From assembly GCA_000004695.1 (NCBI GenBank), contig CM000152.2, positions 4,384,001 through 4,448,000 of the forward strand: 64,000 nucleotides of DNA, written 5' to 3'. This DNA comes from Dictyostelium discoideum (taxonomy: Eukaryota). A program made the position numbers and the translations under genes. This document shows positions 12,600 through 37,316 of this stretch, one piece after another. The notes beneath the pieces were generated by a model that was given only the letters and a program-made list of their open reading frames with translations, made no database searches and had not been told where the DNA came from. How positions within the stretch are numbered: position 1 is the stretch's first letter; the number at the start of each line of letters is the position of its first letter.

Positions 12600-13865
12600 T
12601 TGTTTCTGGTAATTTCCTATGTAAACCATTATGATTAAAGAAATAGCCAAGGACTCTTTCTGATTGATATTTTTTGGTTATTGGTATTCTTTTTGATTGC
12701 GGAATGTTGTTTATTATGTGTTTATCTGTGATTTTGTGGGGGTTGATTTCTATTATTGCACTTTTGTCAAAATTTAATGATGATGATGTTGAAGCGCAGA
12801 AATTATCGAAATGTTTAATTGATTGTTGTTGTTGTTCGTAGTTGATGTTGTATGTTGCAAATTGGGTAAATTTGATTATAATTTGTGGATTGGGTGAAAT
12901 TGGTAATCCAATTATTGTATTGTCTGCATTTATTGTTCTTGCTAATATTTCAATTACAATTACAAATAAAGTGGCTGAGATTGGGTAACCTTGTTTTACA
13001 CCTCTTTTAATATCGAATTTTCTGGTCGTTTTACCATTAATTGAAATTTTTGCTTATGAGTCAGATAATAGCTTGTTGATTAAGTTTATTAATTTTATTG
13101 GTATACCAATATGAATTAATGTTCTTTTAATACTATGGTGAGAGATAGAATCAAATGCTTTAAAGTCAAATAGTGTGATGATATGAGGTTTTTAGATTTG
13201 AGGTAGTTGATTAATTCATTGATGTTGATGATGTTGTCTATGATGAATCTGTGGGGTACGAAACCAGTTTGGTTGTTGTTGATGATGAAAGGAAGTATTC
13301 TCAGAAGACGTGCATTGATTACTTTGGAGAGGATCTTGTAATCAGTGTTTAGAAGTGTAATAGGACGACGATTTGATATGAGTTAGGGGTTGCCTTTCTT
13401 GTATATTGTGTGTATAAGGCCTTCGGTGAATTCTGTTGTGATGTGGTGAGGGTTTTCTAGTATATCGTTGAATAATGTAGTGAAAATTGGTTTAACTTGG
13501 TTTAAATGATTAATGTAGAATGCATTTGTAACGCCATCTGGACCGAGTGATTTGTTGCAGCTTCAACTTCATCTTGTATAAATGGTGAGTCTAAACCATT
13601 CCAATATTCATTTTTTATGATGGGCCATGTGTTTAGCATGAGCTGGTGAGTAATTGGACAACATATTTGTAAGCTATATAGATTTGTGTAGAATTCAACA
13701 AAAGCATTTTCAATTTGGTCGGGGTCGGATGTAATGATGTTACCATATTGGATTGATTCAATTTTTGCATCTTTTGATCTTTTGTTTAGTATTGCTGATA
13801 GATACTTGCATCAATCCAAACATATTAAAAAAACATATTAGGTATTTCTCCATTTATATGTTTTT
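12600..13865 (-). pseudogene. Retroelement reverse-transcriptase region, disrupted by stop codons and frameshifts
   Basis: RT-like translation (...YLDDI-like blocks, LNKSLVLWKTSG...) can be followed on the minus strand. It is interrupted, for example by an in-frame stop near 13050 and by frame changes between the listed ORFs 12208..12600 and 13866..14942. Confidence 0.55.
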
Positions 13866-14942
13866 TTAAATGGAGAAATACCTAATATGTTTTTTTAATA
13901 TGTTTGTGTGGTTTTGATGTAATTTGTTTTTGTTACATATATTATTGTATTCAGCGATGCATTGTTCTTCAAGATGTTTGAATTTTGCTGCTTTTTCTAA
14001 TGGTATTTGTTTTACACGTTGAGTTTGTTTGTCTTTGTTATATTGATAGTTTTTTAGAGTTTTAATAATTTTTGATTTTACTTTTGACCAATTTGAAAAT
14101 TGATTGATTGATGTGTTATTGTGATTAGTTATTAAATGATTGATAATATTGATTGCTTCATGGTCATTTGCAGTACCAGATGATAATATCCATCTTTTCT
14201 TATGTTTTTTTATTTGAAAAGGTGAAGAAATTGTTGTTGATACTGGATTATGATCTGATAATGAAGATGGAATTTGGTGGACTTGTGAATATATATTTTC
14301 AGGGTCTATTCTATTGTATTGAGTATATATTCTATCTAATCTGTTGCCATGTGTATGAGTTGGAGTGTTTTTAAATTCACCTTGATCAATTAGACGGTGT
14401 TGGTATGTGTAGGATTGGATAATATCATATAATAGTGAATTGTCGTTGTGGATACAGTTGAAATCTCCTGCGATAATAGACACATGTTGGGATTGGTTTG
14501 GTATTGGGTTTGTTGAGTGGATGTGGGGAAGTGTTTGTAGTGAAGTTGAATATGAATTCTTTTTGATGGTATTATTTGATGCTGGTGCGTAAATTCCAAG
14601 AATACCAATTGGTAATTGATTTGGAAATATAACGTCTACTAAAATAGCTCTACCATCAATTGTTGATATGTGTTTGAGTTTGAGTGTGTTTGGGTTATGG
14701 TTAAGGATGATTACACCATTTCCTCGTTTGGTGACAGAGATGATATGATCGGGAAAATCATGTTTAAGTTGTAATGGTGATGAATTGAGTTCAGTGAGAA
14801 TTGAGATTGTTGGACGAGGTGGAAGTTTTGATATAAGTAGTTGTAGTGTGTCAACAGCTTTTTGGTAGGAATTGTGTTGATTGTTTGGGTTTTCAGTGAA
14901 TCCTCTACAATTCCATGTTATAAAGTTGATTTTTGAGCTCAT
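13866..14942 (-). CDS. Retroelement ORF2 N-terminal region: apurinic/apyrimidinic (EEP) endonuclease domain
   Basis: 358-aa ORF with EEP-family motifs (ITWNCRGF..., SIIAGDFNCIH, DRIY) typical of L1-clade non-LTR ORF2 N-termini. Confidence 0.7.
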   Translation of the reverse strand: MSSKINFITWNCRGFTENPNNQHNSYQKAVDTLQLLISKLPPRPTISILTELNSSPLQLKHDFPDHIISVTKRGNGVIILNHNPNTLKLKHISTIDGRAILVDVIFPNQLPIGILGIYAPASNNTIKKNSYSTSLQTLPHIHSTNPIPNQSQHVSIIAGDFNCIHNDNSLLYDIIQSYTYQHRLIDQGEFKNTPTHTHGNRLDRIYTQYNRIDPENIYSQVHQIPSSLSDHNPVSTTISSPFQIKKHKKRWILSSGTANDHEAINIINHLITNHNNTSINQFSNWSKVKSKIIKTLKNYQYNKDKQTQRVKQIPLEKAAKFKHLEEQCIAEYNNICNKNKLHQNHTNILKKHIRYFSI

Positions 14943-16355: not shown

Positions 16356-16426
16356 TGCGTATGCTGGGAATCGAACCCAGTTCGCATCCGTGGCAGGGAT
16401 GCATCATACCACTAGACCACATACGC
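16356..16426 (-). tRNA. tRNA-Gly (anticodon GCC), 71 nt
   Basis: Reverse complement folds as a canonical cloverleaf. Acceptor stem GCGTATG/CATACGC. Anticodon stem CATCC/GGATG with loop CTGCCAC. T-arm CTGGG-TTCGATT-CCCAG. Discriminator A. Identical to the copy at 29344..29414. Confidence 0.95.
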
Positions 16427-17225: not shown

Positions 17226-18349
17226 ATGATTTATGGTGATACAAGAGAATTTAGAAATATTCATTTCCATTTAAATAATATCAGGATAGTAGGAGCAATA
17301 TTTGGTCAAGATGGTTTTATTCATAAAAAAATCCCACTCGCAACCAAAGTGATTTCTATAATTTGTTCAATTTTATTTGCACTTAGTTTAGTAGCACCTT
17401 CAATGTTTGGTTCTTATAAAACCTGTTTATCAATTGAAAGTCTAACAAATTCATTTTTAGATAATCGTTTGTATTTTTTTTTTTTTTTTTTTTTTATTAT
17501 TTATTAATTTTTTTTTTTTTTTTTGATTATTTATTAATTTCTTAAAAAAAAAAAAAAGTTTATAGAATTATATTATCAAATTTTGCACATTTATCAATTT
17601 ATCATATTGTTTATAATATGATAACATTTTTAGATCTTGCAAAATTAGAAAGACTTACATTTGGAACATTAAAATATTTTTATTTATTGTTTTTATTTGG
17701 AATTATTACAAATTTAATATGTTTATTTATTTATTTCATTGGTAGAAATAATGTTTGTCATTTAGGTTTCTCTGGTGTACTATTTGCATTGATTTATATT
17801 GAATCAAATTCCTCAGGAAGAGATGTATTTTTATTTAATGCAGTTAAAATTCCATCAAAATTATACCCATGGGCAATGTTAATTTTAGCCCATGTTTTTG
17901 TACCAAGAAGTTCATTCATTGGTCATTTCAGTGGTATTGTTGTTGGTATTTTATTTATTAAAGGTTATTTAGATATCTTTATCTTATCAAATCAAAAATT
18001 ATCAGAAATTGAATCATCTCAACTTATGAATATATTTACAACTAAAAATAGTTATTTCCCAATAATTAAATTTGGTGGTTCTCGTAGATCCTATAATACT
18101 GATAGAAAAAGTTTAGATGGTTTATTTTTTGAATTAAAAAATTTATTTAACCCACAACAACAACAACAAAGACAACAACAAAGACAACAACAACAACCAC
18201 AATCACCACAACCACAACAACCACAACAACCACAACAACAACCACAACAACAACCACAACAACAACCACAACAACATCAAAGAGATAATTTTAGAAACGA
18301 TAATAATGATAATAGTAATAATTATGATGAATATGATTTCTCAAAATAA
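17226..18349 (+). CDS. Rhomboid-like intramembrane serine protease, 2 exons: join(17226..17466, 17634..18349), with a C-terminal poly-Q/P tail
   Basis: Exon 1 and ORF 17618..18349 join in frame across a 167-nt intron (GTTTGT...TTTTTAG). The protein has a GFSGVLFAL motif (GxSG catalytic serine) and LAHVFVPRSSFIGHFSGIVVGILF (catalytic His in an AHxxGxxxG-like context), plus several hydrophobic helices. Confidence 0.55.
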
Positions 18350-25128: not shown

Positions 25129-25216
25129 ATTGAATGATGATATATCACCGCCCCAGTCATAATTTTTGTGCTGATTCGGATTTACAGAACACGCCAGTTT
25201 TGCTTCTGACACCAAT
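25129..25216 (+). ncRNA. Candidate box C/D snoRNA (about 88 nt)
   Basis: 5' ATTG-aa-TGATGA (C box at 25135-25140)...CTGA (D' at 25171-25174)...CTGA (D at 25206-25209)-cac-CAAT 3'. The 4-bp terminal stem ATTG/CAAT flanks the C and D boxes. The surrounding region is an intergenic non-AT island with no ORF. Confidence 0.35.
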
Positions 25217-25412: not shown

Positions 25413-25482
25413 TTGAATGATGAAACAAACAGACCTGATCTGAACAGTCAATGTTGACCAAAACTAAGAAGTTCTGACTCAA
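25413..25482 (+). ncRNA. Candidate box C/D snoRNA (about 70 nt), about 200 nt downstream of the first candidate, same orientation
   Basis: 5' TTGA-ATGATGA (C box at 25417-25423)...CTGA (25435-25438, D'-like)...CTGA (D at 25474-25477)-c-TCAA 3', with terminal stem TTGA/TCAA. Confidence 0.3.
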
Positions 25483-29343: not shown

Positions 29344-29414
29344 GCGTATGTGGTCTAGTGGTATGATGCATCCCTGCCACGGATGCGAACTGGGTTCGAT
29401 TCCCAGCATACGCA
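29344..29414 (+). tRNA. tRNA-Gly (anticodon GCC), 71 nt, identical to the copy at 16356..16426
   Basis: GCGTATG-TG-GTCTAGTGGTATGAT-GCATCCCTGCCACGGATGC-GAA-CTGGGTTCGATTCCCAG-CATACGC-A. Canonical cloverleaf, anticodon loop CT-GCC-AC. Confidence 0.95.
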
Positions 29415-29445
29415 CAAATTTTAAATGCCTGATTTATTAGATCAA

Positions 29446-33158: not shown

Positions 33159-33258
33159 NNNNNNNNNNNNNNNNNNNNNNNNNNNNNNNNNNNNNNNNNN
33201 NNNNNNNNNNNNNNNNNNNNNNNNNNNNNNNNNNNNNNNNNNNNNNNNNNNNNNNNNN
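33159..33258. other. Assembly gap (100 N)
   Basis: Run of exactly 100 n characters, flanked by a (TTCATT/TTTCAT)n hexamer-like repeat on the right. Confidence 1.
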
Positions 33259-35659: not shown

Positions 35660-36382
35660 TGGAAGTAGTTTTAATTGTTTGTGATTATAAATAATAATAA
35701 TAAAAAAAAAAAAAAAAATTGAATTTTTTTTTTTTTTTTTTTTCAAAGAATCTTTTTGTTTGTTGACAAATGAACCCAAATTTTTTTTTTTTTTTTTTTT
35801 AGTTTATTTCTCTAATTTTAATTACTTCTAATTTTATATTTATTTTCATAAATTATTGTTTCATTAGAAATAAATTTTTTTTTTTTGTAATGGATCGAGT
35901 GTGGAAAGAAAAAAAAAAATTTTAAAAAAAATAAAGAAATGAAAAGTAAATTAATATAATTATCTTAATTGTCTTTATTTATTTTTTTAACTTGATTTTT
36001 TATTTATTTTTGATATGAATTTAGTAAACAAAAATGGACCACTCAAAAATAAACGAAATGATATGAAATAATTTTTTTTTTTTAAAAGTTTAAAAAAAAT
36101 TAAATCCAAAAAAATAAAAACTAATATGTATAAAAGAAGATAAAAATTATTTTAAAAAATATTGAGCTTTATTAGTTTATTGATTCTAAATATGTTACTA
36201 TTTTTTTTATTTCTGTACATGTGAAGACACATTTATATGTACCAGTAAGCGAGGCTGTAATAAAAACTTTGATTTAAACAGCCTAAATGTGTCCTAACAA
36301 AAAAATGTATCCATTGCAAAATACACAACTTTTTTTTCTTTTAAAAACGTGCATTTATTACAAAATACAAAAATTGGATTTG

Positions 36383-36506
36383 AATTGCCAGAAGCCATTT
36401 CAAACAAAAACATGTTATAAATCAAAATACCAAACTAATTAGAAAAAAAAAAGTTTGGTATTTTGATTTAAAACACGTTTTTGTTTTGAAATGGCTTCTG
36501 GCAATT
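36383..36506. repeat. Long near-perfect inverted repeat / hairpin (about 54-bp arms, 15-nt A-rich loop) flanked by about 40-bp direct repeats
   Basis: Left arm AATTGCCAGAAGCCATTTCAAACAAAAACATGTTATAAATCAAAATACCAAACT. Loop AATTAGAAAAAAAAA. Right arm AGTTTGGTATTTTGATTTAAAACACGTTTTTGTTTTGAAATGGCTTCTGGCAATT. About 3 mismatches or indels over 54 nt. Direct repeats CTTTGATTTAAAC...TGTGTCCTAACAAAAAAAT at 36267-36307 and CCTTGATTTAAAC...TGTGTCCAAAAAAAT at 36520-36559. Confidence 0.8.
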
Positions 36507-37048
36507 AAGAACAAGAAAACCTTGATTTAAACTGTTGCTATTATGTGTCCAAAAAAATCACACAAGTAACCACCAATCCTTTTCATTTAAGATATAAAAA
36601 AAAAAAAAAAAATAATGATTAAAATTAAAAAAAAAAAAAATTAAAAAAAAATAAAAAAAAAAAAAAGAAAAAAAAATAAAAAAAACGAGAACGAAATTCG
36701 AAGTGATTTGGAAAATGTAAAAAACAAATGAAATTTCAAGCCAATATTATTTTTTAAATATATAAGAAAAATAAAAAAAATAAAAAAACAAATAATTAAA
36801 AATAACATTATAAAAAAAAATAATAAAAAAAAGTGTGTGTGATAAAAAAGAAAATGATGATCAATATCCAAATTGGGGTTGTAGTTCGAACAGTGTTGAT
36901 AAAAAATTATTACAAAAAAAAAATAAAAAAAAAATAAAAAAAAAAAAAAAAAAAAAAAATGAAAAAACAAAAAAAAAAATTTTCAAAAATTTTTAAAATT
37001 TTTTTTTTTCACATTAATTACTATCATATTTATACCTACACACACAAA

Positions 37049-37316
37049 ATGTTTGCTTTAAGATCAATTCGTTCAGCTACTAAAGCTTTCCAAACCACTT
37101 CAATTGTTTCTCAAAGGTATAAAAATAAATATAAATATAAAAATAAAAATAAAAATTAGATATACAAATATATAAACATTGTTTTTTTTTTTTTTTGTGA
37201 TCTTATTTTATGTCAATGAAATAAAGTAAAAACAAAATACAACAAACAAATAATAAAAAAATAATGACAAAATAAAGATAAAAATATAAAAATAAAAATA
37301 TAAGATTATTGAATGG

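Follow-up and report, generated by a model that had tools for sequence, protein, structure and literature searches.

The hairpin and the repeat array around it

The window analysed here is a stretch of 64,000 nt of Dictyostelium discoideum DNA of the AX4 type, and the locus of interest is a 1.4-kb spacer that separates two divergently transcribed genes. On one side lies an RCC1-like gene on the minus strand, which encodes an RCC1-repeat protein and has its start codon at about 35661; beside its 3' end the assembly has a gap, a run of 100 N at 33159-33258. On the other side is cxdA, which starts at 37050 on the plus strand and whose four exons, once spliced, encode a protein identical in 148 of 148 residues to cytochrome c oxidase subunit IV of D. 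discoideum AX4 (XP_640649 / P30815). Near the middle of the spacer, about 720 nt and about 540 nt from the respective start codons, there is an inverted repeat of 125 nt (36383-36507), in which arms of 54 and 55 nt, separated by 16 nt, form 52 bp. This confirms the earlier note, which had described a near-perfect hairpin of about 124 bp with 54-bp arms. The 5' arm (36383..36436) is the 3' two-thirds of a repeat unit that we call C, the spacer or terminal loop (36437..36452) reads AATTAGAAAAAAAAAA, and the 3' arm (36453..36507) comes from an inverted unit, C', none of the three being assigned to a strand. The one extra base of the 3' arm forms a 1-nt bulge, which is present in all three D. discoideum lineages (3/3).

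The plus strand of the hairpin forms 52 base pairs with two mismatches and the 1-nt bulge, and the minus strand 55 pairs, including one G-U. Folding of the RNA, a check that the earlier note had proposed, bore out the structure: the minimum free energy (MFE) was -70.5 kcal/mol for the plus strand and -74.6 kcal/mol for the minus strand, and none of 200 dinucleotide shuffles was as stable (z -13.7 and -16.3, respectively). When all 130-nt windows of the 64 kb were folded (mean MFE -14.2, sd 7.1), the hairpin locus was the most stable of all, at -69.4, and only one other locus, 13801-13930, fell below -38. A 22-mer of the stem, AATTGCCAGAAGCCATTTCAAA, was found in the window in the two hairpin arms only, against an expectation of 0.00. 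In a comparison with Rfam, plant and animal miRNA models gave nothing but generic matches to a long hairpin, all below the gathering thresholds (17-42 bits, against 53-211). A 51-aa ORF spanning the hairpin gave no record in an exact sequence look-up, and 15-16-mers from the hairpin arms gave no match in a full-text literature search.

Local alignment with shuffle controls revealed that one unit of about 70 nt is present about 4.5 times at the locus. Unit A (36262..36330, plus strand) is a full-length direct copy that aligns with C over about 70 nt (z 5.8, 0/300 shuffles), with D at z 6.8 and with B at z 5.4. Unit B (36342..36375, plus strand) is a 3'-half copy with the core CAAAATAC. Unit C (36368..36436, plus strand) is a full copy and the source of the 5' arm, as seen in its alignment with A and in a nine-row alignment of the arms, while C' (36453-36520) is the inverted copy that supplied the 3' arm. 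Unit D (36515..36559, plus strand) is a 5'-half copy and the positional counterpart of a single ancestral element, CTAAATATGTGCGAAAAACATA, in D. firmibasis, D. citrinum and D. dimigraforme. The motif CAAAATAC, which the earlier note had seen three times, indeed occurs at 36317, 36361 and 36423, where it is the core of the 3' half of units A, B and C, and it is also present inverted at 36458, in C'.

The direct repeats of about 40 bp that had been reported to frame the hairpin are real, although the symmetry of that frame is not. A 17-nt sequence, AAAACYTTGATTTAAAC, occurs at 36263 and 36516 only, against 0.03 occurrences expected, and the similarity runs on to about 45 nt. The left repeat, however, ends 76 nt before the 5' arm, and the right one, which is unit D, starts 9 nt after the 3' arm. 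The two repeats are the 5' halves of units A (36263-36307) and D, and the same unit of about 70 nt makes up the arms.

The whole array lies in a G+C island (36200..36600, no strand) with 22-30% G+C, against 8-16% in the surrounding spacer. The region had been described as otherwise featureless and intergenic; it is intergenic, and the island between two divergent genes is a feature. Known genes for non-coding RNAs in Dictyostelium look similar to this island. On the plus strand, 168 nt upstream of the stem base, a T-rich stretch that ends in G, CTATTTTTTTTATTTCTG, is found at 36197..36215; the start-site motif published for pri-miRNAs is of this form. Such motifs occur 100 times per strand in the 64 kb, or about once per 640 nt, and this run is therefore uninformative: it is compatible with a start site without being evidence for one.

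The array in related lineages

Orthologous spacers were located via both flanking proteins, and the genomes were ordered by their identity in the cxdA region; the D. purpureum locus, which is not syntenic for cxdA, was left out of the series. In a newer D. discoideum assembly (L005) the locus is 100% identical to the window and lies at about 4.49 Mb of a 6.43-Mb chromosome. Two further genomes labelled D. discoideum, L006 and L007, are 95% identical in the cxdA region and have kept the hairpin, with an MFE of -66 to -70 kcal/mol. They differ from the window by an additional repeat unit, by a changed and longer spacer, and by a stem base longer by about 4 bp. The extra unit, of about 85 nt, lies between A and B (L006 2200-2290, L007 2205-2295), indicating that the copy number of the array varies within D. 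discoideum. The inner stem has changed in parallel on both arms, from TAAAT/ATTTA in the window to CACAT/ATGTG in L006 and L007, while the outer 33 bp or so and the 1-nt bulge are unchanged. The intergenic spacer has another large indel elsewhere: a stretch of about 100 nt in the window (35840-35940) is without an aligned counterpart in L006 and L007 (bin identity 0.00-0.04).

Two genomes labelled 'cf. discoideum' differ more strongly. L008, at 93% identity, is without about 320 bp, corresponding to about 36275-36592. The missing stretch includes CACCAATCC and the counterpart of unit D, both of which are retained in the outgroups; the state of L008 is thus a deletion rather than an empty insertion site, because sequence kept in more distant species is missing as well. 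In L003, at 89% identity, the orthologue of unit A and, after it, an inverted copy that has decayed give a fold with an MFE of -32.4 (z -4.1), and units B, C and D are absent from the orthologous locus. The most distant members of the series are D. dimigraforme, D. citrinum and D. firmibasis (78%, 74% and 71% identical in the cxdA region), in which the orthologous spacer has no inverted repeat and a single half-unit only. This element, (AAAACTTTA)TGCTAAATATGTGCGAAAAACATA, occupies the position of unit D, just upstream of blocks that are conserved in all species. The array is therefore of local origin, and it is present, decayed or lost among sibling lineages, with arms that have changed in concert.

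The conserved blocks themselves are non-coding stretches upstream of cxdA, at 36683-36745, 36855-36895 and 37008-37040, conserved from D. discoideum to D. firmibasis in a spacer that is otherwise unalignable. Their sequences, for example AACGAGAACGAAATTCGAA...GTAAAAAACAAATGAAATTTCAA, GATCATCAATATCCAAATTGGGGTTGTAGTTCGAACA and TTTTCACATTAATTACTATCATATTT, are likely to represent promoter elements of cxdA.

Is the stem under selection? The invariance of its outer part is not special, because 28% of all 27-nt windows in the spacer likewise show no change from the window to L006/L007. Within the island, divergence is highest at the centre of the palindrome, 36412-36477, and such rapid change is as expected from palindrome instability. 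RNAalifold recovered one compensatory pair, with only two effectively independent D. discoideum haplotypes to draw on, and two positions changed on both arms could be counted by eye in the nine-row arm alignment. This covariation would be thin evidence for selection on the structure and is not proof of it. The parallel arm change fits selection on an RNA stem, and it equally fits arm-to-arm conversion in a DNA palindrome. The strands are not equivalent: at each of the three sites where the arms differ by a transition (one in the window, two in L006/L007), the minus strand has a G-U pair and the plus strand A-C, and the minus strand folds about 4 kcal/mol better than the plus strand in every lineage. 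The G-U pattern weakly hints that it is the minus strand that may be transcribed, the probability of such a pattern by chance being about 1 in 8.

Origin and possible function of the hairpin

We favour, with some reservation, the reading that the hairpin is a young, locally generated palindrome of a proto-miRNA type that evolves close to neutrality. It would be the head-to-head junction of C and C' in a small array of units of about 70 nt that is confined to one locus. The array would have been built in the D. discoideum species complex, when a conserved element upstream of cxdA was duplicated locally, both in tandem and in inverted orientation. In the simplest history, this element would have been duplicated and joined to an inverted copy before the split of L003; further tandem copies would then have been added in the D. 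discoideum lineage, where a fresh inverted pair, C/C', would have replaced the decayed one; and the array would have been lost by deletion in L008. The inverted copy may have arisen by a fold-back or template-switch replication error, and the similarity of the arms would be maintained mainly by arm-to-arm conversion and recency, not by selection. If the G+C island is transcribed by Pol II, the 52-bp stem would be a substrate of the nuclear Dicer DrnB with RbdB, and their cutting would yield about two adjacent 21-nt duplexes. The anatomy of the predicted fold is that of a Dicer substrate, and its use as one would be structurally plausible. Its expression at present is most likely weak or nil, and its evolution nearly neutral. 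Against a neutral history stands the fact that long palindromes with short spacers are usually unstable, yet this hairpin persists across about 5% divergence, and selection on RNA structure could be the alternative explanation of the matched arm changes and the conserved bulge. The G-U pattern of the minus strand and the G+C island also count against the favoured reading.

It is possible, if unlikely, that the hairpin is a working hairpin-RNA gene that has gone unlisted, be it for a young miRNA or for the precursor of hairpin siRNAs. The island would be transcribed by Pol II and its RNA would fold back, DrnB and RbdB would cut one or two 21-nt duplexes from the invariant outer 25-33 bp, and an Argonaute would then use these duplexes in trans. 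The earlier note had included such a reading, and in its structural side it stays plausible: the length (125-131 nt), energy density (-0.54 kcal/mol/nt) and intergenic position match those of validated D. discoideum pre-miRNAs. The published criteria for miRNAs of this species ask for a precursor below -0.2 kcal/mol/nt and for at least 60% of the duplex to be paired (PMC6161686). The hairpin, at -0.54 kcal/mol/nt, lies well below the former value, and 52 of its 54 arm positions are paired, so that any 21-nt duplex of the stem is at least 90% paired. The hairpin is not in Table S1 or S3 of Liao 2018, and 10- and 12-mers of the arms gave no match in the supplements of Liao 2018 (PMC6161686), Edelbroek 2024 (PMC11014262) and Meier 2016 (PMC4894637), a comparison outside which lie about nine loci of Avesson et al. 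2012. Table S1 of PMC6161686, which holds mature sequences in DNA letters, served as the positive control for this search. The miRNAs of chromosome 3 in the published lists map to 3.66 and 3.74 Mb, away from the hairpin at about 4.49 Mb (in L005). One listed candidate, ddis_Cluster_1065 (PMC11014262), was considered as a possible record of the hairpin, and no identification followed: its length of 144 nt and loop of 84 fit a duplex at the stem base, but its energy of -0.5747 kcal/mol/nt was not reproduced with the full hairpin in any window or at any temperature.

Further observations are consistent with a hairpin-RNA gene. Three lineages share the same outer 33 bp of the stem, and where their loop and inner stem differ the pairing is preserved, with at least one compensatory pair; arm mismatches that are transitions become G-U pairs in the minus strand; the plus strand has a T-rich/G motif upstream; and the locus is in a G+C island. 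For this clade, miRNAs restricted to one lineage, with proto-hairpins in sister species, have been documented (PMC11014262), and small RNAs of low abundance are easily missed, since DIRS-1 siRNAs dominate the libraries (PMC6161686). Against such a gene, and in addition to its absence from the miRNA tables searched, conservation of the arms does not exceed that of the spacer around them, and the hairpin is deleted in the closely related L008. Scanning of 21-mers with up to 3 mismatches found no complementary target in the 64-kb window, only poly-A-rich matches. The base rate is also unfavourable. About 27 miRNA loci are known in the 34-Mb D. discoideum genome, and two long palindromes in 64 kb, this one and a second described below, are far more than this number would predict were every such hairpin a miRNA gene, which makes the prior low.

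Two sequence signals of known non-coding RNA classes were also considered. The upstream element DUSE, which we take to be [A/T]CCCA[C/T]AA about 60 nt before the gene, occurs in the 64-kb window at 1894 and 18150 only, and the 11-nt motif of Class I RNAs, presumably CCTTACAGCAA, is absent from it. The hairpin is thus placed neither among DUSE-driven non-coding RNAs nor in Class I.

The hairpin shares several traits with the validated D. discoideum precursors (ddi-mir-1176, -1177, -1178 to -1186, -7096 and -7097), which are 101-187 nt long, have -0.43 to -0.73 kcal/mol/nt, are mostly intergenic and single-copy, and have a T-rich run ending in G upstream (PMC6161686, PMC11014262). It resembles them in size, energy, intergenic position, single copy (within the window) and upstream T-rich/G run, and in its restriction to D. 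discoideum and the closest relatives. Its stem is also long enough for two adjacent duplexes, such as those given by mir-1180 and mir-7102. It differs in being known from sequence alone and in being missing from the lists searched. Furthermore, its stem of 52 bp exceeds those of most miRNA precursors both in length and in completeness of pairing, and in this it is more like the precursor of hairpin siRNAs; the authors discarded one candidate with perfect pairing, ddis_Cluster_1861, on inspection (PMC6161686, PMC11014262). A further parallel is ddi-mir-1179. According to PMC11014262, an imperfect and weaker hairpin is present in the orthologous spacer of D. firmibasis, which the authors read as emergence or decay of a miRNA, and our locus likewise has a weaker hairpin in the orthologous spacer of a sister lineage. 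Compared to that account, the present locus owes its changes to duplication, inversion and deletion of units rather than to point substitutions, and it has no known mature RNA.

Young plant MIRNA genes and animal hpRNA (endo-siRNA) loci formed by inverted duplication offer another comparison. Like them, the hairpin is a long, near-perfect fold-back produced by recent inverted duplication and short-lived in evolution, and its processing would be expected to be heterogeneous. Unlike them, it has its source in a local intergenic unit and not in a fragment of a target gene, and no obvious target is thereby implied. The fullest version of the hairpin-RNA proposal would be an unlisted gene of the D. 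discoideum complex, seeded by duplication of the element upstream of cxdA, with a proto-hairpin in one 'cf. discoideum', a renewed hairpin with compensated arms in D. discoideum and a deletion in the second 'cf. discoideum', and giving rise to DrnB-dependent small RNAs from the outer stem. We regard this version as rather unlikely.

An RNA product need not be involved if the array is a DNA-level regulatory module of the divergent promoter of the RCC1-like gene and cxdA, with multiplied binding sites and possibly a cruciform. The 5' half of the unit does descend from an element conserved as far as D. firmibasis, beside the other conserved blocks upstream of cxdA, and the start codons of the two genes are 540 nt and 720 nt away. 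We nevertheless consider this improbable: the ancestral core (ATGTGCG / ATGTGTCC) has been lost in C and C', which read GCCAGAAGCC, the number of units differs between lineages, and the whole array is dispensable in L008.

The earlier note had also proposed a small MITE-like element, and it is very improbable that the hairpin is a non-autonomous DNA transposon of this or of the thug-S type, with the inverted repeats as its termini and the direct repeats as target-site duplication. In favour of this are its small size, its AT-rich, palindromic sequence and the direct repeats close by; MITEs and thug-S are likewise short AT-rich DNA able to form a hairpin, and copies of the repetitive thug-S give rise to D. 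discoideum miRNAs. However, the direct repeats are partial copies of the arm unit, about 45 nt long, placed asymmetrically at 76 nt and 9 nt from the arms and not abutting any termini; the inverted repeats are not flanked directly by a short target-site duplication, and the arms are only 16 nt apart. Neither the hairpin nor the array has a second copy in the 64-kb window, and 20-mer scans of metagenome and prokaryote genome collections returned isolated, unpaired matches to unrelated bacteria (6 and 9, respectively), as chance would give. The relatives offer no clean empty site: the hairpin lies at the orthologous position in three lineages with a varying copy number of units, L003 holds an intermediate form, and L008 lacks the ancestral flank too, as in a deletion. 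The lack of a clean empty site, the asymmetry of the direct repeats and the absence of another copy in the window together argue against a MITE. The traceable local origin would likewise set the hairpin apart from thug-S.

To return to the young, locally generated palindrome, its interest lies in the question of how such hairpins are born. Amoebozoan miRNAs turn over very fast, and their mode of birth is an open question (PMC11014262). The locus offers a datable series in close relatives, from a single element, through a unit with a decayed inverted copy, to a renewed near-perfect hairpin and finally a deletion. If small RNAs map to the hairpin, it would be a clean case of the birth of a miRNA or hairpin siRNA from local repeat instability, with neither a target gene nor a transposon as the source. 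If no such RNAs map there, it would serve as a negative control, indicating that hairpins resembling pre-miRNAs in size and energy can arise and persist in an AT-rich genome without being genes, an outcome that bears on the prediction of miRNAs from structure only.

A second palindrome and other features of the window

The only other locus of comparable stability contains a second palindrome (13817-13906), with arms of 40 nt that are 100% complementary, a 10-nt spacer and an RNA MFE of -56 kcal/mol (z -15). Table S1 of Liao 2018 does not list it. It lies at the end of a minus-strand ORF (13866-14942) with an Exo_endo_phos domain (endonuclease/exonuclease/phosphatase, of the APE-type endonucleases), whose frame stays open across the first arm and ends in the spacer. 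A tRNA-Gly gene (16356-16426) is about 1.4 kb from this ORF, as expected for retroelements that target tRNA genes. The second palindrome is probably an inverted duplication in a decayed non-LTR retroelement near tRNA-Gly, and it indicates that long inverted duplications arise spontaneously in the D. discoideum genome.

In D. citrinum (L001 5728-7680), a 650-residue reverse-transcriptase (RVT_1) gene lies beyond cxdA, and none was noticed at the corresponding place of the window.

The two matches to the [A/T]CCCA[C/T]AA element, 1894-1901 and 18150-18157, are both on the plus strand and compare with about 10 expected from shuffles; they may mark non-coding RNA genes downstream. In D. dimigraforme a match to the same element, ACCCATAA (L004 5541-5548), is found inside its cxdA spacer. 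Other RNA genes of the window are recognised by Rfam. Two tRNA-Gly(GCC) genes, the one at 16356-16426 on the minus strand and another at 29344-29415 on the plus strand, have identical Rfam scores, and the box C/D snoRNA genes DdR13 and DdR1 (25131-25209 and 25414-25479, plus strand) lie 200 nt apart as full-length Rfam matches.
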